From: a virus
Lineage: Duplodnaviria > Caudoviricetes
IMG/VR virus record: IMGVR_UViG_3300020044_007975
Coordinates: 1 to 37,091 of that record
Length of the DNA stretch: 37,091 nt
Direction: 5' to 3' (one strand)
Part shown: in pieces, positions 3,858-37,091 of the stretch
Layout of the letters: the number at the start of each line of letters is the position of its first letter
How positions within the stretch are numbered: the stretch's first letter is position 1
Notes under the pieces: generated by a model
What the model saw: the letters and a program-made list of their open reading frames with translations, nothing else
The model's database searches: none
Told to the model about the DNA's origin: nothing
Position numbers and translations under genes: made by a program

Positions 3858-3891
3858 ATTTTCTACAGGTGATATTTTTTGAGGTGAAAAA

Positions 3892-4257
3892 ATGATAAGT
3901 GAAAGATTAAAACAGCTAGTAGCAGAAGAAGCAAAGAGCTTAATGGAGTATGCAACAGTTGAAGAAAGAAATAAATTAAATTTTAAGGAATTAAAACCTA
4001 ACTATATTACATCATGTATTTATGGGCAGATGACGGGGGGCTGCAGGAATGTTAGGGCGGTTGAATTGCTTAACCAATGTGCAAAGCCTTATTCGAGGCA
4101 GCTTTTAAGGCATTCTAAGCCATTAAATAATAAAGAATTTGATGTGGACAGTTTTTATTTCTATTCACCGATAGAGTGTTATATAAACAAGAATGAAGCA
4201 AAAAATGAAAGCCTAATCTCTTACCTGCGTGGTGAGACTGATAATCTTAAGTTGTGA
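3892..4257 (+). CDS. Hypothetical protein
   Basis: 121-aa ORF, GAGGTG RBS; CIYGQMTG motif. Confidence 0.8.
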   Translation: MISERLKQLVAEEAKSLMEYATVEERNKLNFKELKPNYITSCIYGQMTGGCRNVRAVELLNQCAKPYSRQLLRHSKPLNNKEFDVDSFYFYSPIECYINKNEAKNESLISYLRGETDNLKL

Positions 4258-4274
4258 TTTTTTGAGGTGAAAAA

Positions 4275-4475
4275 ATGACAAATGATTTATCCACCGAAGC
4301 GACAACGATTGGGCGGATGACGCATTTCTATTGCTCGGTGTGTGATGCTATACGGCCTGTGTTATTTGAGGGAGCATGTCACGAAGATAAGTCGGGTCTT
4401 TTTGTCGGCGGTGATGTTATGTGTACCGTGTGTCCACACATTATTGCGACTGTGTACATTAGGAACAGTAATTAA
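4275..4475 (+). CDS. Small zinc-finger-like protein
   Basis: CSVC and CTVC pairs; GAGGTG RBS. Confidence 0.7.
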   Translation: MTNDLSTEATTIGRMTHFYCSVCDAIRPVLFEGACHEDKSGLFVGGDVMCTVCPHIIATVYIRNSN

Positions 4476-4504
4476 TTAAATTTAATATTTTTTGAGGTGA
4501 AAAA

Positions 4505-5116
4505 ATGAAAATATTTACAGCAATATTAATAACATGGGTTATGTGTCTTGTGGTTGGCGTGGCTAATGCCGATGTAATCATGCAAGACATGTCAGGCCAA
4601 CAATGGCGTAACAGCCAATACCAAGAACAAGAATACGAGCGCAGGCAGGCGCAGGCGTTGGAACGTATGGCGCAACAGCCGCAACCGGATCAGCTTAACC
4701 AGTCTACACCAATGTACCCTAATGGCAACATAAGCAGAATCCCGCCGGTTATCGAAAATAACGACGATGGGTATTATGCCGCTTATGTGGCGGCGGCTAT
4801 AGCCAAGAAAAATAAACCTAATATTGAATTGTTTAGCTATGTGCCAACACCAAAACCAGGTGATCTTGTGATGGACTATAGCAATGGCGTTAAATTAGTG
4901 GTTTGGTTAAGCGAAGGGTTTATAAAAGACGATATTGGAAAATCAATAGCGGTTACTTCTGGGGTAATCGGTGCTGACAATAAAGGTCACGCAGAACAAT
5001 ATGCTTATGGTTGTGACAATCATTTGATAGTGTACGGGCATAAGCAAAAGATTTTAGATGAAGGCAGTCCAACTCGCGTTATGTTTGATGAGGTTTGCCG
5101 GAAATACGGGCTTTAA
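4505..5116 (+). CDS. Exported hypothetical protein
   Basis: Signal peptide MKIFTAIL...ANA; GAGGTG RBS. Confidence 0.8.
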   Translation: MKIFTAILITWVMCLVVGVANADVIMQDMSGQQWRNSQYQEQEYERRQAQALERMAQQPQPDQLNQSTPMYPNGNISRIPPVIENNDDGYYAAYVAAAIAKKNKPNIELFSYVPTPKPGDLVMDYSNGVKLVVWLSEGFIKDDIGKSIAVTSGVIGADNKGHAEQYAYGCDNHLIVYGHKQKILDEGSPTRVMFDEVCRKYGL

Positions 5117-28917: not shown

Positions 28918-29114
28918 GATTTCAATTTGGAAATGTAGTCGTCGTTGATGGTGGCATGATAGGCGTAATATGCAAGTCATGGGCAAATGGAACACATGAC
29001 GTTTATGTTCGCAGCTATAACGGCATAAGAGAGTTTCATGAAAAAAACATAGCTCATTTCATTTATTCAAAAGAATTGAGTGATGAAGAAATGGAGTTTT
29101 ATAATGAAATATAA
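28914..29114 (+). CDS. Small SH3/KOW-like hypothetical protein
   Basis: MRFQFGNVVVVDGGMIGVI. Confidence 0.65.
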   Translation: MRFQFGNVVVVDGGMIGVICKSWANGTHDVYVRSYNGIREFHEKNIAHFIYSKELSDEEMEFYNEI

Positions 29115-29150
29115 ATTCCGTTATTTCACTTTTCAAGGATGTATAGAGCC

Positions 29151-29966
29151 ATGACTAATATTATTGTTATCTACCATAAGAATTGTTTGGATGGCTTCGG
29201 TGCAGCTTATGCTGCATGGGTTAAATTTGGTGATAGTGCAGAATATATTGCTGCTTCGTATGGTGATGAGCCACCCGACGTAACTGATAAAAATGTGTTT
29301 ATTGTGGATTTTAGCTATCCACGTGAGACACTTATAAAAATGCGTGAAGCTGCGGCAGGTTTAGTTGTTTTAGACCATCATAAGACAGCAAAGGAAGCCC
29401 TTGAAGGGTTGCCATTTGCTATATTCGATATGGATAAGTCAGGGTGTGTGCTTACATGGGAGTATCTACATGACGAACCAATACCAGAATTATTGCAAGT
29501 TATCCAAGACCGCGACTTGTGGCAGTTTAAATTCCAAATGACTAAATCAATTAATGCAATGATGTTCCTTGAACCGTTTGATTTTAACAGATGGCATGAA
29601 ATTGTAAGTGCAGGTATTCATGGGCTAGATGAATTGGCTGCATTTGGCAATGTAGTGTTAAAAGCACATACACAGCAAGTTGATATAGCTTGTAAGTGCG
29701 CACATTCTGTTACTTTGAACGAGATATTAGGTTTAGCGGCTAACGCTCCGCCTAATTTAGCAAGCGATTTAGGGCATAAACTGGCTTTAGAGTCTGGTAC
29801 GTTTGGTCTTGTGTACAGTTATAACGGGGCTAAAGATGAATGGTTATGCAACTTACGCTCAAACGGTGATTTTGATGTGTCTGCTATTGCTAAGAGCTAT
29901 GGCGGCGGCGGGCATAAGAACGCGGCAGGGTTTATCGTTAAAGGCGTTCCAGGGTGGTTAAGATGA
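29151..29966 (+). CDS. DHH/DHHA1-family phosphoesterase (NrnB-like)
   Basis: YHKNCLDG, VDFS, LDHHKT, DRDLW, GGGGHKNAAGF. Confidence 0.92.
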   Translation: MTNIIVIYHKNCLDGFGAAYAAWVKFGDSAEYIAASYGDEPPDVTDKNVFIVDFSYPRETLIKMREAAAGLVVLDHHKTAKEALEGLPFAIFDMDKSGCVLTWEYLHDEPIPELLQVIQDRDLWQFKFQMTKSINAMMFLEPFDFNRWHEIVSAGIHGLDELAAFGNVVLKAHTQQVDIACKCAHSVTLNEILGLAANAPPNLASDLGHKLALESGTFGLVYSYNGAKDEWLCNLRSNGDFDVSAIAKSYGGGGHKNAAGFIVKGVPGWLR

Positions 29967-30466
29967 AATATAAATCCTGTTATTTCACTTTAGCGGCTGT
30001 TTTGTGCATTAGCGGCTGTACCGAAAGCCTAAGTCTAAAACACATGGAAATAGAAACAAGGACGGAATTTCTCAACAAATATGTTTGGATAGCATCTAAA
30101 GACAGCAAGGGCAATATCATACCAGGTACGGAAAAGATTATTATTTGCGAGGGATATTTCAAGCCATTCAGCAAGGCAATGGAAGGTGCGGTATTTATTG
30201 GCAGTGCCGCTTTAATTGGTGCCGGGTTAAGTGGCTCTGGTGACAGCACTAATATTAGCAATCGGTCAACTGGTGGCAATTCAACAGGCGGTAATGCTAC
30301 TAGCCTAAGCAATGCAACTGGCGGTAATGCTGTTTCTAATAGCTTAAGTAATGCTAACAGCCTAAGTAATGCCAATGCACATAGCAGAAGCTCTATTATG
30401 CAACCTAAGCCACATTATTACCGCGAATTAAAACCACATGAGGTTAACGGTTATAAGCTAGATTAA
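29963..30466 (+). CDS. Putative lipoprotein with Ser/Asn/Gly repeats
   Basis: Lipobox-like ISGC; TGGN and SLSNA repeats. Confidence 0.65.
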   Translation: MKYKSCYFTLAAVLCISGCTESLSLKHMEIETRTEFLNKYVWIASKDSKGNIIPGTEKIIICEGYFKPFSKAMEGAVFIGSAALIGAGLSGSGDSTNISNRSTGGNSTGGNATSLSNATGGNAVSNSLSNANSLSNANAHSRSSIMQPKPHYYRELKPHEVNGYKLD

Positions 30467-30484
30467 GCTGATTATACGTCATTT

Positions 30485-30506
30485 TGTCGTATATCTTGCG
30501 TTATAC
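30485..30506 (+). mobile_element. Truncated attC-like half site at end of left array
   Basis: TTGC-GTTATAC at 30496-30506; partner arm missing. Confidence 0.45.
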
Positions 30507-30507
30507 G

Positions 30508-30696
30508 TCATGTTTTGCTGTTCACACAAAAAACAGAAACGGTGCTTTCGGCATCGCCGCTGGATGGCACTTTTATTTGTGCGCTAGAAACTGCGGCAAC
30601 ACACGTTTCCATATCTTTCATCCTAAATTCCCTTTCTATTTGTCCGCCACCAGTTGAAAGTGTGGCTATATAAATTAATAGCACTGATGTTTCCAT
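30508..30696 (-). CDS. Cassette-borne small hypothetical protein
   Basis: RBS GAGGGG supplied by attC-like site 30699-30781. Confidence 0.7.
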   Translation of the reverse strand: METSVLLIYIATLSTGGGQIEREFRMKDMETCVAAVSSAQIKVPSSGDAESTVSVFCVNSKT

Positions 30697-30698
30697 TG

Positions 30699-30781
30699 GT
30701 ATAACCCCTCATTCAACGCGACCGTTGGCCGCCAGTTCATTGTTTTGCGCCGTGCCGCGGCGCGTTAATTCTGCGTTATAC
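30699..30781 (+). mobile_element. attC: attC-like site (canonical top strand on +)
   Basis: GTATAAC-CCCTC-ATTCAACGCGA...CGCGTTAAT-TCTGC-GTTATAC with two unpaired bases. Confidence 0.85.
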
Positions 30782-30983: not shown

Positions 30984-31067
30984 GTATAACCCCTCATACA
31001 AGCCGACGTATTAACGCCAGCGGTTTCGTTTGGCGCACCAAAGGCGCGGCTTAATTTTGCATTAGGA
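30984..31067 (+). mobile_element. attC: attC-like site with degenerate core (ATT for GTT)
   Basis: GTATAAC-CCCTC-ATACAAGCCGACG...CGCGGCTTAAT-TTTGC-ATTAGGA. Confidence 0.8.
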
Positions 31068-31276
31068 GTGAGTTCGTGGTGTGCTGTTACGCCAAAGAGG
31101 GATTCAGCCTTACCGTCTCCGGGGTGCCCCCTCACTTCCGCCAAGCATCCCCGCTCCCTCGGTTTCAGCACCATGCCTTTGGTGTCGCTGAGCCGCTCTG
31201 TAGCACTTGGGTACTTCGCCTCACTCTTTAAAAGGTGGCTGCTTCTAAGCCAACTTCCCACAAACTCACTCCTAAT
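31061..31276 (-). ncRNA. Structured RNA mimicking the 23S rRNA L11-binding (H43/H44) domain, with 130-nt insertion
   Basis: 19-bp closing stem enclosing GGAAGTTGGCTTAGAAGCAGCCACCTTTTAAAGAGT and GCGTAACAGCACAC. Confidence 0.85.
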
Positions 31277-32830: not shown

Positions 32831-33001
32831 TCAACTCCTGCTCACTTTTTCAGCCAATTCCAACACAAAGTTATTAACAACCAAGCTATCCATTTCTAAG
32901 GCCAATTCATGCGCCATAATCATTATCTTGGCGCGTTCTTTTGCTCGTTCTGTTTCGGCAAATTCCAGCATTTCTGCCGCATCAAATACGTTAGTTTTCA
33001 T
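32831..33001 (-). CDS. Hypothetical protein
   Basis: ATGA overlap with upstream gene. Confidence 0.6.
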   Translation of the reverse strand: MKTNVFDAAEMLEFAETERAKERAKIMIMAHELALEMDSLVVNNFVLELAEKVSRS

Positions 33002-33510
33002 AGCTCGATTTCGCCACTGTTCAATCTGGTGCAAACGTCATTGATAACTTTATCAATATGGTATGTATACAATGGGGATGGGTTTACATCGCTAATAACA
33101 ATCCATTTCCCAGAGTGGTCAAAGCATGGTCTACAATTATGCTGTCCAACTATAGGCACATATTCACCATATTCCCTAATGACCGAATTAAGCCTTGAGA
33201 CAGCACGTAAAAGCTTATGCTTTTCGATTGCGTCTTCTTCTGTCTTGCAGATCATTGAGGAATCTACAAATCCATCGAGCCACATTGTAGAATAATATGG
33301 CGCAGAGTTATCGGTAGGATAGCCCCAGCCCTTCTTTAATGGCTTCCACTTATCTTTTTGTGGCTCTTGTTTTGGCTGCTCGCGTTCCAATAGCTCTATT
33401 GTTGCATCAATGACTTCATTCAATACAGCATATATGTGACCAGTGCCAATAGCACCAGCCTGGTTTTCACTGGTTTTTAAGTTTCGTAATTTTTCGATTT
33501 TGTCTTTCAT
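32998..33510 (-). CDS. Hypothetical protein
   Basis: 170-aa ORF, ATGA overlaps. Confidence 0.75.
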   Translation of the reverse strand: MKDKIEKLRNLKTSENQAGAIGTGHIYAVLNEVIDATIELLEREQPKQEPQKDKWKPLKKGWGYPTDNSAPYYSTMWLDGFVDSSMICKTEEDAIEKHKLLRAVSRLNSVIREYGEYVPIVGQHNCRPCFDHSGKWIVISDVNPSPLYTYHIDKVINDVCTRLNSGEIEL

Positions 33511-33740
33511 CGGAATAGCCCCTTTTCAAAGGGAAATAAGCATTCGTTTAGCTTCTCATAATCGTCGTCATAATCGCCCGTAATGTCGGTACTGGCGGTT
33601 ATGATGTCGTCACCGCGCTCATCCATTAATCGCTGTTTTATGCGTGTAGAATAATTTACTGTCTTGATAGCTACTTCCTCACTATTAGCTTCAATTAAGC
33701 CGGTTGCTTGCGTGGTTAATGTGACTTCATAAATAGGCAT
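33507..33740 (-). CDS. Hypothetical protein
   Basis: MPIYEVTL...IEANSEE.A; AGGTGG RBS. Confidence 0.7.
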   Translation of the reverse strand: MPIYEVTLTTQATGLIEANSEEVAIKTVNYSTRIKQRLMDERGDDIITASTDITGDYDDDYEKLNECLFPFEKGLFR

Positions 33741-33869
33741 ATATCCACCTAACAACAGTCCAAAGACCGATAAAGCATAATCCTGAGAATATCCCGCATA
33801 GCAAAAATGCGGCAAATATATTGGCTTTTTTAGGCTTATTAATTTCTAGAAAAAATTCTTCGTCTAGCA

Positions 33870-34079
33870 TCAGTGCATCACCTTTACTTTTATGTTGCCT
33901 CTTGTTTCAGCGAATTCCAGCATCTGATATCCTATATAAAAAAGCTCCGATATTTTTTCAAAATCTTTAACAATATTGTTTGGTATCGCTTCACTAAACA
34001 ATAACACGCGCTTACCGTTAAGATAGCCATGCACCATGTGCAGATAAGTTCCGGCACTGATTTTTAAATGGTTTTCCAT
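33870..34079 (-). CDS. Hypothetical protein
   Basis: 69-aa ORF in early-left operon. Confidence 0.6.
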   Translation of the reverse strand: MENHLKISAGTYLHMVHGYLNGKRVLLFSEAIPNNIVKDFEKISELFYIGYQMLEFAETRGNIKVKVMH

Positions 34080-34200
34080 ATTTAACTATCCCATGAATCG
34101 GTTAATTGCTTAACAAGCAACAGAAAAATTCCGCAGAATGCAGACAACATGCCAAACACGCATAAGACCGGGGTTATAAATTCAAATAAGTTCATTGTCT

Positions 34201-34410
34201 TTAATAATCAAATACTGGAATTATCAACGGCAGGTGCATGTAATTTCGGAAACTACCATCAATAATTTCACAGCCATGATCGTTAAACATGTCTTCTGTC
34301 ATTAGCTCGCTGTCTTCGGCCAATTCTTGAATAGCGATCATTGCCATATTATCAGCCTCACTTCCATCGCTTGTTAGTTTAATTACGCCTTCTATAATTT
34401 CTACTTTCAT
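34201..34410 (-). CDS. Acidic hypothetical protein
   Basis: Start MKVEII after repeated leader with AGGTGAGGG. Confidence 0.65.
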   Translation of the reverse strand: MKVEIIEGVIKLTSDGSEADNMAMIAIQELAEDSELMTEDMFNDHGCEIIDGSFRNYMHLPLIIPVFDY

Positions 34411-34411
34411 G

Positions 34412-34788
34412 CCCTCACCTTTGGGTAAAATTAAATGTTCCTGAAAATATCTTTGCTTCCACTCCGTCAATACCGATGAGTCGAAACCGAAATAGTGCTA
34501 TCAGTCACGCTTTCAACGTGCTGCAAATGCTCCTCTGCCGATTTCATTTCTTTGCGCGCCTGCTCTGCCTTCAGGCGTAGGCACGTTATTGCGTACTCTT
34601 TCGCAGAATCGAAATCCTCAAAATACCTAACGCCATCGGACCCTTTCGAAACCCGCTAACCTCCAATAAAAACCGATGCGTCAGTAACCTTTTCCGCTAC
34701 GACTTTGACAAACTCGAAAGTCCATCGAGACTTAACGCGCCACACGTCAACCATACTGCTCCCTCACTTTTGGGTAAAATTAAATGTT
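34412..34788 (-). repeat. 28-bp leader direct repeat
   Basis: AACATTTAATTTTACCCAAARGTGAGGG at 34412-34439 and 34761-34788 (27/28). Confidence 0.92.
34467..34754 (-). pseudogene. 95-codon gene with in-frame TAG at codon 33
   Basis: MVDVWRVK...FIGG*RVSKGSDGVRYFEDFDSAKEY...; GAGGGAG RBS; TAG at 34656-34658. Confidence 0.7.
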
Positions 34789-34793
34789 GTGTA

Positions 34794-34876
34794 AGTATTG
34801 CACGTAAGCAATATCATGTCAAGCTATATCGTGAAATATTATTGACTTGACAAATTCCAACAATTGCATATATGCT
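34794..34876. promoter_or_regulatory. Divergent early promoters with operator
   Basis: Leftward TTGACA (34817-34822)-17-AATACT over TATTGC-N6-GCAATA; rightward TTGACA (34847)-18-TATGCT. Confidence 0.7.
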
Positions 34877-34883
34877 ATATGTT

Positions 34884-35069
34884 ATGAATATACAAACACT
34901 GCTAGAGAACCTATCTCAACACCTGTCTAATCGCAAAATTGCCTCTTTAGTTGGGGTTCATCCTACAACTATAGGCAGGTTACGCACCGGTAAAGTTAAC
35001 AGTGACAGAGCATCGTCTAAAACTATACGAGCTTTAGAACTACTGGCAATAAATCTAGGGGTGAAGTGA
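34884..35069 (+). CDS. Cro/CI-like HTH regulator, probably leaderless
   Basis: LSNRKIASLVGVHPTTIGRLRTG; ATG 7 nt after -10 box. Confidence 0.85.
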   Translation: MNIQTLLENLSQHLSNRKIASLVGVHPTTIGRLRTGKVNSDRASSKTIRALELLAINLGVK

Positions 35070-35112
35070 TGAAGATTGCAGGACAAGACCATGCCACGCT
35101 TGGGAAGCTGCA

Positions 35113-35271
35113 ATGAACTTACATAAATACACGGATAAGCCGATGTCTGTTACCGATTTGTTCAAAGAAACTATCTTCTTTTGTGACAATAAGAAATCTG
35201 CCTGGAAATGCGCGAAATCAACTTTTAAAGACATAACCAAGTTGAGCAAAGCACTAAAGCATAGGTTATGA
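35113..35271 (+). CDS. Hypothetical protein (52 aa)
   Basis: Manual translation MNLHKYTDKP... Confidence 0.4.
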   Translation: MNLHKYTDKPMSVTDLFKETIFFCDNKKSAWKCAKSTFKDITKLSKALKHRL

Positions 35272-35287
35272 CGAACAGTTACTTACC

Positions 35288-35410
35288 GTATAACGCAAAA
35301 GTAAGATGACCGCCTGGAGACGAGGATAAATATCACTATGACGGCAAACCAAGACACCAGTGAGCAAATCTGTGTTACGGAGGCGGGTCAGCTTGACTGC
35401 CGGGTTAGGC
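35288..35410 (-). mobile_element. attC: attC-like site
   Basis: + strand GTATAAC-GCAAA-AGTAAGATGACCGCC...GGCGGGTCAGCTTGACT-GCCGG-GTTAGGC. Confidence 0.8.
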
Positions 35411-35652
35411 CGATTGCAACTGGCTATGTTAATTACGATGTTAGGGTTAATTGCCCTAATTGCAAAAAAGACATTTATTTAAACCAATACCCGTACAACG
35501 ATGAAGAAACCGATTTTTCATTGACGGATGACGAACTTGGCTTGGCGCTTTTTGGAACAAAAACGAAGCCTGCGACTTGGGATAATTTTGAAATTGAATA
35601 CCAGTGTTGCAAATGCAGAAAACCGTTTGTATTAACTGGTATCGAAATATGA
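35338..35652 (+). CDS. Cassette-borne zinc-ribbon protein
   Basis: CPNC and CCKC; ATG inside attC loop. Confidence 0.75.
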   Translation: MTANQDTSEQICVTEAGQLDCRVRPIATGYVNYDVRVNCPNCKKDIYLNQYPYNDEETDFSLTDDELGLALFGTKTKPATWDNFEIEYQCCKCRKPFVLTGIEI

Positions 35653-35654
35653 CT

Positions 35655-35685
35655 AGCGGCCGTCCGCTGCAAAACAAGGTTAGGC
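35655..35685 (-). mobile_element. attC-like half site
   Basis: GTCCGCTGCA-AAACAAG-GTTAGGC; other arm not found. Confidence 0.5.
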
Positions 35686-35707
35686 CTGCGGGCCGGAGAG
35701 AAAGACG

Positions 35708-35902
35708 ATGCACCTCAAGATTTCTGGCGTTCGCGTCATGTTCCAAGCCGTCGAATCGTTCGCCTTTGACGAGGCCGCTTGCGAACTGGTGGTGAGAACA
35801 GTCAGCGGCGCAGAACATCGGCACTCGGTGCTGGACAAGGCAGAGGCCGACAAGATCGCAGACGCGCTTATTGAGCGTATGTCGCTGTGTGATTCGTTGT
35901 GA
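35708..35902 (+). CDS. Cassette-borne GC-rich hypothetical protein
   Basis: GGAG RBS; bounded by GTTAGGC and GCCTAAC. Confidence 0.7.
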   Translation: MHLKISGVRVMFQAVESFAFDEAACELVVRTVSGAEHRHSVLDKAEADKIADALIERMSLCDSL

Positions 35903-35903
35903 T

Positions 35904-35987
35904 GCCTAACGCAGAATTAAGCCGCGCTGCACCGGCGCGAAACGAAGCCGCCGACGGCAAAGCGTCGGCTTGAATGAGGGGTTATAC
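35904..35987 (-). mobile_element. attC: attC-like site
   Basis: Minus strand GTATAAC-CCCTC-ATTCAAGCCGACGC...GCGCGGCTTAATTC-TGC-GTTAGGC, close to aadA-type attC as recalled. Confidence 0.9.
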
Positions 35988-36182
35988 GTGAATGATAATT
36001 GGATACTTGGTTACGTTATTGAGTTTTCTGACGGCGGTGAGCCTGAAATTCAAATTTTACACAAGGGGTCAGAAGAAAGTTGCGAAAAAATGGCTAATTT
36101 ACTGCCAGCCGTGTCATATAGCGGCGACAGGCCAAACCCAAGTGCTTCGCTTAGATGGATGCCTGTTGGAAGTGACGGATAA
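35988..36182 (+). CDS. Cassette-borne hypothetical protein
   Basis: GTG start after attC-supplied GAGGGG; TAA in next core site. Confidence 0.7.
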   Translation: MNDNWILGYVIEFSDGGEPEIQILHKGSEESCEKMANLLPAVSYSGDRPNPSASLRWMPVGSDG

Positions 36183-36262
36183 CGCAAAGCTAAGGGGCGC
36201 GATTGATGAGTGAAGAAACACCACAAACGGTGGGCGCGTCCCACTTGAGCGACGGGTTAGGC
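36177..36262 (-). mobile_element. attC: attC-like site
   Basis: + strand GGATAAC-GCAAA-GCTAAGGGGCGCG...CGCGTCCCACTTGAGC-GACGG-GTTAGGC. Confidence 0.85.
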
Positions 36263-36266
36263 TGAA

Positions 36267-36443
36267 ATGATAAGATTTTGTGACGAATGTGGTTTGCCTT
36301 TGAATAATGAAGAAATTGAATATTACGAGACACGGTGCGAACAGTGCGAGCGGGAATGGCTTGAGGACATTACAGCTTGGCGCAAAGGAGCTAAAAATGA
36401 CAAATTTGACAAGCTTTATTCGATTGCCCGGATTTTAAACTGA
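36267..36443 (+). CDS. Cassette-borne small Zn-finger protein (58 aa)
   Basis: MIRFCDECG...RCEQCE. Confidence 0.65.
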   Translation: MIRFCDECGLPLNNEEIEYYETRCEQCEREWLEDITAWRKGAKNDKFDKLYSIARILN

Positions 36444-36550
36444 TGAACGAATTACAAAAAGAGCTGTGCATAGGTTTTACTTTTGGGTTTATAGCCGCTT
36501 CTGGGCTATTTTTGATTGCCTTGGTATTTTTTACCGATTGTGCCGCCTAA
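36443..36550 (+). CDS. Small membrane peptide (35 aa)
   Basis: TGATG overlap; TAA in GCCTAAC. Confidence 0.5.
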   Translation: MNELQKELCIGFTFGFIAASGLFLIALVFFTDCAA

Positions 36551-36631
36551 CGCAAAGCTAACCGGGCGCGACAATGACGACAATTAAACAAGACAATGCT
36601 TCAAGCGCTCCGGTTGAGCGACGGGTTAGGC
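36545..36631 (-). mobile_element. attC: attC-like site
   Basis: + strand GCCTAAC-GCAAA-GCTAACCGGGCGC...GCGCTCCGGTTGAGC-GACGG-GTTAGGC. Confidence 0.9.
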
Positions 36632-36876
36632 TGGGAATGATTAATAAAAGAATTAAAATTATTGCAGCGATAATTTATGTTGTTGTTGCAATTGTAACAT
36701 TCGGCGATTCTGCCGTATTTTTTGAGAAACGAGGCATTGCGGAAGTTGAATATTGTCGCGCTAACGCCGTTAATCCGATGTGGTGTGATTTAAAAAAGTC
36801 GATGGGTTTTGCCGCATTAGCATCAACTGTTGCTTGGCCTTTTTACTGGTCATACAGGTTTGCATACGACGGATAA
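36574..36876 (+). CDS. Cassette-borne two-TM membrane protein
   Basis: Two hydrophobic helices, WPFYWSY; start in attC loop or at internal MINK. Confidence 0.7.
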   Translation: MTTIKQDNASSAPVERRVRLGMINKRIKIIAAIIYVVVAIVTFGDSAVFFEKRGIAEVEYCRANAVNPMWCDLKKSMGFAALASTVAWPFYWSYRFAYDG

Positions 36877-36959
36877 CGCAGAGCTAACCGGGCGCGGCCA
36901 GGAAAGCTAAACAATGAAACCGTACTATAACCGCGCTCCGGTTGAGCGCACTGTTAGGC
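36871..36959 (-). mobile_element. attC: attC-like site
   Basis: + strand GGATAAC-GCAGA-GCTAACCGGGCGCGG...CCGCGCTCCGGTTGAGC-GCACT-GTTAGGC. Confidence 0.9.
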
Positions 36960-36973
36960 ATAGTTTTAAAAAG

Positions 36974-37091
36974 CAACATATCATCTAGCGGCCTAGGAAT
37001 ACTGTTTACTGGGAAATGCGGATTAAGCAACCGCCGTAGTCGTCTAAAGCCTAGGGCACCCGACCACAGAAACGCAGGTTCGAATCCTGCT
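36974..37091 (+). ncRNA. tRNA-like RNA with about 60-nt insert replacing the anticodon loop (3'-truncated)
   Basis: D-arm-like ATCTAGCGGCCTAGGA, CTGT/ACAG stem, perfect T-arm GCAGG-TTCGAAT-CCTGC. Confidence 0.7.

Follow-up and report, generated by a model that had tools for sequence, protein, structure and literature searches.

The window, the whole stretch of DNA analysed here, is a virus record of 37,091 bases, linear, without terminal repeat and with a completeness estimate of 100. Its genes include those for a terminase, a portal, a major head protein, an endolysin, a DNA methyltransferase, NinB, a Holliday junction resolvase and an Erf-like protein. A PF00589 search of the 37,091 bases for a tyrosine recombinase gave no match, and the intI gene of a complete integron was thus not found in this phage. 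Two early arms diverge at about 34,830, and each is closed by an array of hairpins and small genes. At the divergence, a pair of divergent sigma-70-like promoter matches (34794..34876), each with 10 of the 12 consensus letters, is likely to drive both arrays from a distance; taken alone these matches are weak, the scan of 34400-37091 having given 6 matches where 4.3 were expected. No match was obtained in the window with Rfam at the gathering score or with ARAGORN, nor with blastn of 35200-37091 against annotated phages, and a search for related loci with two cassette proteins returned just 4 and 1 weak matches.

A structural scan identified seven attC sites in the two divergent arrays, five on the + strand and two on the - strand. 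On the left (- strand), the first site (30984..31067) is slightly degenerate, with a core TAAT, and scores 28.8 bits on the + strand with the attC covariance model described below. It is followed by a cassette gene of 64 aa belonging to a phage family (30776..30970; phrog_6887, E 2.6e-9), whose stop codon is provided by the TAA in the core of the second site. The second site (30699..30781) carries an extrahelical T and an extrahelical G on the coding (-) strand and scores 47.5 bits on the + strand. A 62-aa cassette gene (30508..30696), without PHROG or Pfam match, begins at an ATG 8 nt past the GAGGGG of the site arm, and the array ends at an attI-like half-site (30472..30506) made of the core GTATAAC and then ACGACA-N3-TGACG-TATAA, with no integrase gene after it.

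The right array (+ strand), which the sequence-only reading had begun at 35904, actually starts at 35288 with a long site (35288..35410) whose loop holds the Shine-Dalgarno (SD) motif and the ATG (35338) of the next gene, and in which relatives break at 35290 and 35299. This gene (MTANQ, 35338..35652) encodes 104 aa with two CxxC motifs, and its first ~24 codons lie inside the site. A probable 3' remnant of an eighth site (35656..35685) ends with GTTAGGC, complementary to the core at 35904; loose ends of relatives fall at 35658-35699 and the remnant has no covariance-model score. A 64-aa cassette gene (35708..35902) precedes the aadA7-like site at 35904..35987, which scores 57.3 bits on the - strand and whose 3' spacer GAGGG is a likely SD for the next cassette gene (35988..36182, 64 aa from GTG), which again terminates at the TAA of the core that follows. 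The site at 36177..36262 has an ATG in its loop from which a mini-ORF of 19 codons (36206-36265) runs; 1 nt separates its end from the ATG of a two-gene cassette (36267..36550) encoding 58 aa with Cys pairs (36267-36443) and a hydrophobic 35 aa (36443-36550), with a weak zinc-ribbon Pfam match under the cut-off. The site at 36545..36631 has a loop ATG (36574) in frame with the following gene (36574..36876), whose product has hydrophobic segments and is 100 aa long if translation starts at the in-site ATG, or 79 aa if it starts at ATG 36637. The last site (36871..36959) is ~85% identical to attC of Methylococcaceae chromosomal integrons and holds a 24-codon mini-ORF (36914-36988); its cargo, and with it the right end of the array, is cut by the contig end. 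The two mini-ORFs bear out the earlier proposal that sites can supply such frames.

All seven sites have RYYYAAC ... GTTRRRY cores (one of them being the TAAT mentioned above), spacers of 5-6 nt and paired L boxes, and in all seven the extrahelical G lies on the coding strand. A stricter structural scan recovered five of the seven and none in 30 shuffled windows, the second extrahelical base of these five being T in four and G in one; the relaxed scan that had identified the seven also gave three weak one-mismatch candidates within structural genes. Unconstrained folding is weak by itself (coding-strand z from -0.3 to -2.6). The coding strand of 35904-35987 reads GCCTAAC GCAGA ATTAAGC CGCG...CG-T-CG GCTT-G-AAT GAGGG GTTATAC; every box of it, CG-T-CG and GCTT-G-AAT included, agrees with the attC-aadA7 bottom strand given in Table S3 of Qi et al. 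2023 (PMC9892861). Comparison of one site with plasmids by blastn yielded short matches only and no usable reference attC.

To orient the sites, a covariance model was built from 49 bacterial attC, each oriented by a long ORF ending at the site. Every window site scored on the antisense strand, with 29-57 bits, and the coding strand reached at most 15 bits. Because the pattern used to find the training sites came from the window, the match to the model is partly circular; the strand result is not. The unpaired T and G thus lie on the coding strand in both arrays and the antisense strand reads as a canonical top strand, as had been read from the letters, and the polarity came through the covariance model with the sites oriented against the ORFs. 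The top-strand gene with attC at its 3' end that defines a classical cassette was not found in the two arrays of this phage. They are same-strand attC clusters within 4 kb with no integrase nearby, hence CALINs by definition rather than classical cassette arrays, and the comparison supports well the idea that they would work like an integron with its genes reversed.

To locate the crossover, viral, genome and metagenome loci contributed 511 site contexts, which were screened for pairs with one common flank only. Among the viral pairs with common downstream DNA, the hairpin was common too in 7 of 8, three of these seven pairs representing one cassette in three contigs; among those with common upstream DNA it was common in 0 of 3. 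At the base level, identity in viral pairs begins or ends within a few bases of TAAC. Relatives of the phage's own cassettes were found in contigs from 3 runs of one study. Two contigs show no difference from 35290 on (to 35380 in one, to 35578, through the gene, in the other) and are foreign upstream, one contig has upstream DNA identical up to 35299, and two are identical through the 35708 gene up to 35913 and then continue with a different hairpin. The order is changed in another contig type, in which a 36177-like site is linked to a 35904-like one through 223 other letters. The joints 30506-30699 and 35988-36172 carry unknown letters between them and were not counted as excisions.

Between identical relatives, the breaks thus fall at the 5' AAC and not at the 3' GTT, and these comparative breakpoints place the crossover, in all likelihood, at AA|C of the strand with the extrahelical bases. 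The AAC of the bottom strand is the cleavage position in attC (Nivina et al. 2016, PMC5027507); as exchanges occur at this classical cleavage position of IntI, the chemistry appears classical and the gene flipped. The crossover had been placed at the upstream gene's stop. Its position at the 5' AAC holds, but the core TAA is that stop at only four of the seven sites (36177, 36545, 36871 and 30781): at 35904 the stop is a TGA immediately before the core, at 35288 it lies ~17 nt before the core, and site 31067 is preceded by a non-coding RNA. Of 84 viral cassettes, 61 have a head GTTRRRY exactly complementary to the RYYYAAC at their own tail, and complementarity inside one site is found in 24 of the 84 (shuffled mean 14.9, maximum 30). 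This head-tail complementarity is a mark of circular intermediates, and by itself it is silent on which end is cut.

The proposal that the hairpin travels with the downstream gene is borne out by the recent exchanges, but not over longer times, when gene bodies swap hairpins. In the 35338 gene family, no fewer than six different leaders occur, and they differ as far as the codon at the 3' GTT; site 36871 is 98.9% identical to a site in L058 with both flanks different; and in one of the eight viral pairs the downstream DNA is common and the hairpin is not. From the leaders and the L058 site it follows that hairpin and gene are not permanently linked. Some slower process, which may be top-strand recombination, homologous recombination or cassette genesis, would join hairpins to new genes.

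Start and SD signals lie in or directly after the sites. As had been noticed, the sites carry a likely SD before GTG 35988 and ATG 30696. The frame of the GTG gene is confirmed by six homologues, one of which starts inside a site in another frame. An in-frame start inside the site had also been claimed for MTANQ, and agrees with the six homologues of this protein (five from databases and one from L365), which have 51-84% overall identity and the body in common. All six leaders are variable and end in arm-like peptides such as GQLDCRV, APVENRV, GQVERLV and GPVERRV. The stretch from the arm-like motif to the conserved body has no Met in the window protein and in five of the six homologues; in P0003 and P0004 one Met falls within the last codons of the motif, and in the L365 homologue an ATG in the loop is preceded by GGAG. 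A start codon inside the hairpin is thus supported by the homologues of the 35338 gene. For the MTTIK gene (36574), the homologue search matched only the gene itself and the in-frame ATG 36637 follows the site; the evidence for its leader is the open frame. A loop ATG on the coding-type strand is present in 88 of 124 viral sites versus 27 of 93 bacterial sites, and a loop ATG with an SD on the same strand in 36 of 124 versus 2 of 93.

The strand of attC was then tabulated against that of the ORFs by scanning the same motif in viral contigs (65 + 30 loci), genomes (at least 123 loci) and metagenomes (at least 123 loci). According to stop position, 78 of 159 viral sites are reversed, 26 classical and 55 uncalled; among the matches listed, the 171 genome sites comprise 18 reversed, 106 classical and 47 uncalled, and the metagenome sites 27 reversed, 57 classical and 34 uncalled. 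Calls based on the longest ORF or on stop position are noisy at high G+C: a check by PHROG homology indicated that 7 of 15 viral loci called classical are actually reversed, and of the 10 genome loci called reversed, among the matches listed, four are prophage regions, two have phage-family matches and four are unsupported. Classical exceptions among phages are TJE1 and L010. The site at 36871 is identical at 76/90 and 78/90 positions to attC of a classical Methylococcaceae genome integron, which leads us to infer a methanotroph-like host, and site families are common to different cassettes. The idea of a phage-specific class therefore stands in part: reversal dominates in viral contigs, but the hairpins are of host type, TJE1 is classical and hairpins are swapped. 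Possible reversed phage-type cassettes, without family matches, were also observed in Methylococcaceae chromosomal regions (L151 4081-4506 and L131 after 4083).

Phage attC sites are already published. Qi et al. 2023 (PMC9892861) reported integrase-less attC clusters (CALINs) in phages TJE1, PH101 and P12002L, in which IntI1 recombined five of six tested sites. The arrays of TJE1 and PH101 are termed typical there and reversed polarity is not described in the text consulted, whereas here TJE1 is classical and PH101 reversed. In PH101, a cultured phage, four reversed attC sites were found (KR534323 75921-77984, L103); the structural detector missed them, and they were detected with the pattern and the covariance model. 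The strands recombined by IntI1 in that study are minus strands, that is, the strand of the annotated flanking genes, and PH101 is a ready test system because two of its sites have already been recombined with IntI1.

Among 49 viral records with such sites, one (G031) encodes an IntI over the family cut-off (472 bits for a cut-off of 265). This record has, at L362 8905-13475, an attI-like half-site and at least seven reversed attC, its intI lies 78 nt beyond the half-site on the same strand, and its cargo includes a methyltransferase-like ORF; from its translations, G031 also appears to encode a repressor-like gene product and a large serine recombinase. The G031 IntI used as query revealed 72 viral loci, and a conserved AAC-TTRAA-TTCRACGACA-like motif was present ~50-120 nt before the intI match in 49 of the 65 loci examined (52 regular-expression matches, 3 of them misplaced). 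In L377/L378, L379/L380 and L421/L424, the DNA upstream of this AAC differs though the downstream DNA is the same or nearly so.

The orientation of cargo was assessed in 36 viral IntI loci by taking, from each strand, the two best ORFs that lie upstream of the attI-like motif. PHROG matches were obtained for 28 of 72 ORFs on the intI strand (in 23 loci) versus 0 of 72 on the other strand, and correspond to DNA methyltransferases and to PAPS-reductase-like, Mom-like and Gam-like proteins. The stop-position test was uninformative beside phage intI (18 vs 20) and homology was used in its place. Across 35 phage IntI loci, the intI strand carries all 35 attC that were detected, shuffles giving none, and the nearest cassette head exactly complements the attI core in 10 of 19 loci. 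A tree of 63 IntI rows groups 43 viral sequences in a single branch (support 99/95) and leaves 11 bacterial and 9 further viral sequences outside it. The sampling is thin, with only these 11 bacterial IntI and a viral set seeded from a branch member. L372-L443 and G031 look like complete phage integrons with an IntI, a conserved attI-like site and reversed cassettes.

The half-site at 30472-30506 in the window is similar to this phage attI-like motif, and was called with a motif written after the half-site had been seen. The half-site motif was absent from 300 shuffled windows and its exact form occurred in only one contig of the viral scan. A half-site of the same type, likewise with no intI behind it, stands at the end of a reversed array in L096/L444, and another ends a bacterial array in L274. 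A Pc at the half-site could not transcribe the array genes, since these point toward it.

These arrays resemble classical integrons in their R and L boxes, extrahelical G and T and unpaired spacer (Nivina et al. 2016, PMC5027507), in the AAC crossover on the extrahelical-base strand with complementary cassette ends and, in the phage IntI loci, in an intI carried by that same strand. They differ in that the phage genes lie on the extrahelical-base strand with attC 5' of the gene, where it may hold the SD or start, and in that cassette genes point toward attI/intI, with no apparent role for a Pc. In the inverted-integrase integrons of Treponema and others (Cury et al. 2016, PMC4889954), intI is co-directional with the cassette genes, as here. 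In those integrons, however, intI is flipped relative to attC, whereas in the phage loci, with 35 sites to 0 on the intI strand, the intI-attC relation is usual and the genes are flipped. Recombination sites that give translation signals or coupling mini-ORFs are known from ORF-11 in attI1 and from short ORFs in attC (PMC8876359); compared with those aids as described there, the phage signals are found on the opposite strand and are part of the cassette that holds the gene, whose N-terminus they may encode. The complete phage integrons of Qi et al. are bacterial integron fragments or, for one cryptic prophage, close to a Shewanella integron, and none of those given in the text consulted belongs to the phage IntI branch. 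Neither the reversal nor this branch is found in any paper within our search, which most subscription journals lay outside and which covered some sources in part.

The reading that we hold to be very probable is that these are integron-type cassettes with genes on the opposite strand, in which the hairpin heads the gene, supplies its RBS or start and is moved by IntI. The integrase is predicted to act in trans because the phage encodes none. The strand carrying the extrahelical G and T doubles as the coding strand in the seven sites, and comparison of relatives places the exchange on it at the 5'-core AAC, the position at which IntI cleaves classical attC. True IntI genes occur in other phages together with attI-like sites and reversed arrays, the cassette genes pointing toward attI/intI at the far end of an early arm. 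Phage early promoters would replace Pc, new cassettes may enter promoter-distally (at the half-site at 30506) or at any attC, and the enzyme acting here could come from the host, whose integron attC is near-identical, or from a co-resident phage. Opposite polarity might then silence host cassettes, many of them anti-phage, in a phage array, and phage cassettes in a host array. We lean slightly toward the broader view that phages run a mirror-image integron, with their own IntI branch, attI at the end of an early operon, attC as translation start and a cassette pool of DNA methyltransferases, Mom-like and PAPS-reductase-like modifiers and small uncharacterised proteins, where integrase-less phages are supplied in trans and phage and host cassettes are mutually silent.

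Other explanations were weighed against the IntI-moved cassettes. The hairpins could be common linkers at which the phage annealing proteins swap genes homologously, without integrase: the record does encode an Erf-like protein, NinB and a resolvase, and no integrase, site families are shared by different cassettes, and the head changes near GTT could arise in this way. We think this quite unlikely, as the breaks fall within a few bases of AAC with just 4-10 common bases, core complementarity tracks the cassette ends, the extrahelical bases have been retained, and elsewhere IntI and attI-like sites are found beside such arrays. That phage-encoded IntI above the cut-off adjoin arrays of the same type, and that the sites are ~85% identical to attC beside full IntI genes in Methylococcaceae genomes, also makes it very unlikely that a non-IntI recombinase, for instance a Xer-like enzyme without the IntI insertion, acts on the sites in this phage's host, a view that the lack of IntI in the record would favour.

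The enrichment of loop ATG with SD on the coding strand, the degenerate site and the remnant, together with the known translation-aiding short ORFs in attC (PMC8876359), would suit inactive relics kept for RNA roles such as translation coupling, processing or termination. In our view relics are highly improbable, since recent exchange is evident from contigs in which one side of a core matches without a single difference and the other side is foreign. Finally, ordinary host cassettes might have been captured whole and their ORFs read on the wrong strand, in keeping with the host-type attC sequence and the classical arrays of TJE1 and L010. Homologues and PHROG matches place the genes on the extrahelical-base strand, and inversion of a whole cassette leaves the gene-to-attC order unchanged, so that we regard this capture as barely conceivable.

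Integrons are regarded as having a fixed cassette orientation, gene first and attC second, read from Pc. If true, a widespread reversed design with its own integrase branch would give phages a site-specific route to mosaic accessory regions, and would be a phage counterpart to the host integrons reported as stores of anti-phage genes (10.1101/2024.07.02.601686,.601719). One hairpin family joined to genes either way, and one gene body with several hairpins, offer a handle on cassette genesis, and for annotation, xVERRV-like N-termini may flag attC-encoded leaders.

Other structured elements were observed in the window. A structured RNA of 214 nt (31062-31275, - strand; MFE -87 kcal/mol, z -3.9), closed by a long stem, includes a segment of 23S rRNA copied almost exactly (Rfam RF02541 positions 1096-1145, E 1.4e-4) with an interruption of ~130 nt. 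These positions correspond to the L11-binding GTPase centre. The 3' stem of the RNA overlaps the first left-array site, and in five other viral contigs the opening motif recurs, along with a similar closing motif, around longer inserts. The RNA could be a phage mimic of rRNA, for which we found no relevant paper. At the other end, the contig stops inside a tRNA-like sequence with a clear T arm (37033-37091, +; Rfam E = 1, none with ARAGORN); a 42-nt match to it lies upstream of a reversed array in L177.

Modules of the left arm vary in relatives, 33002-33530 being lacking or replaced and 34199-34762 lacking, with joints in two runs; these variable modules (within 32998-34763) carry no attC. 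A second kind of repeated gene head is seen in 3862-4515, where TTTTTTGAGGTGAAAAAATGA occurs three times, each copy heading a successive small gene (repeat families D3 and D8). A DHH phosphoesterase gene (29139-29966) is bracketed by the two copies (29099-29132 and 29958-29991; 88%) of a 34-nt direct repeat, which suggests an inserted module, and in locus L079 a DHH gene is an attC cassette.
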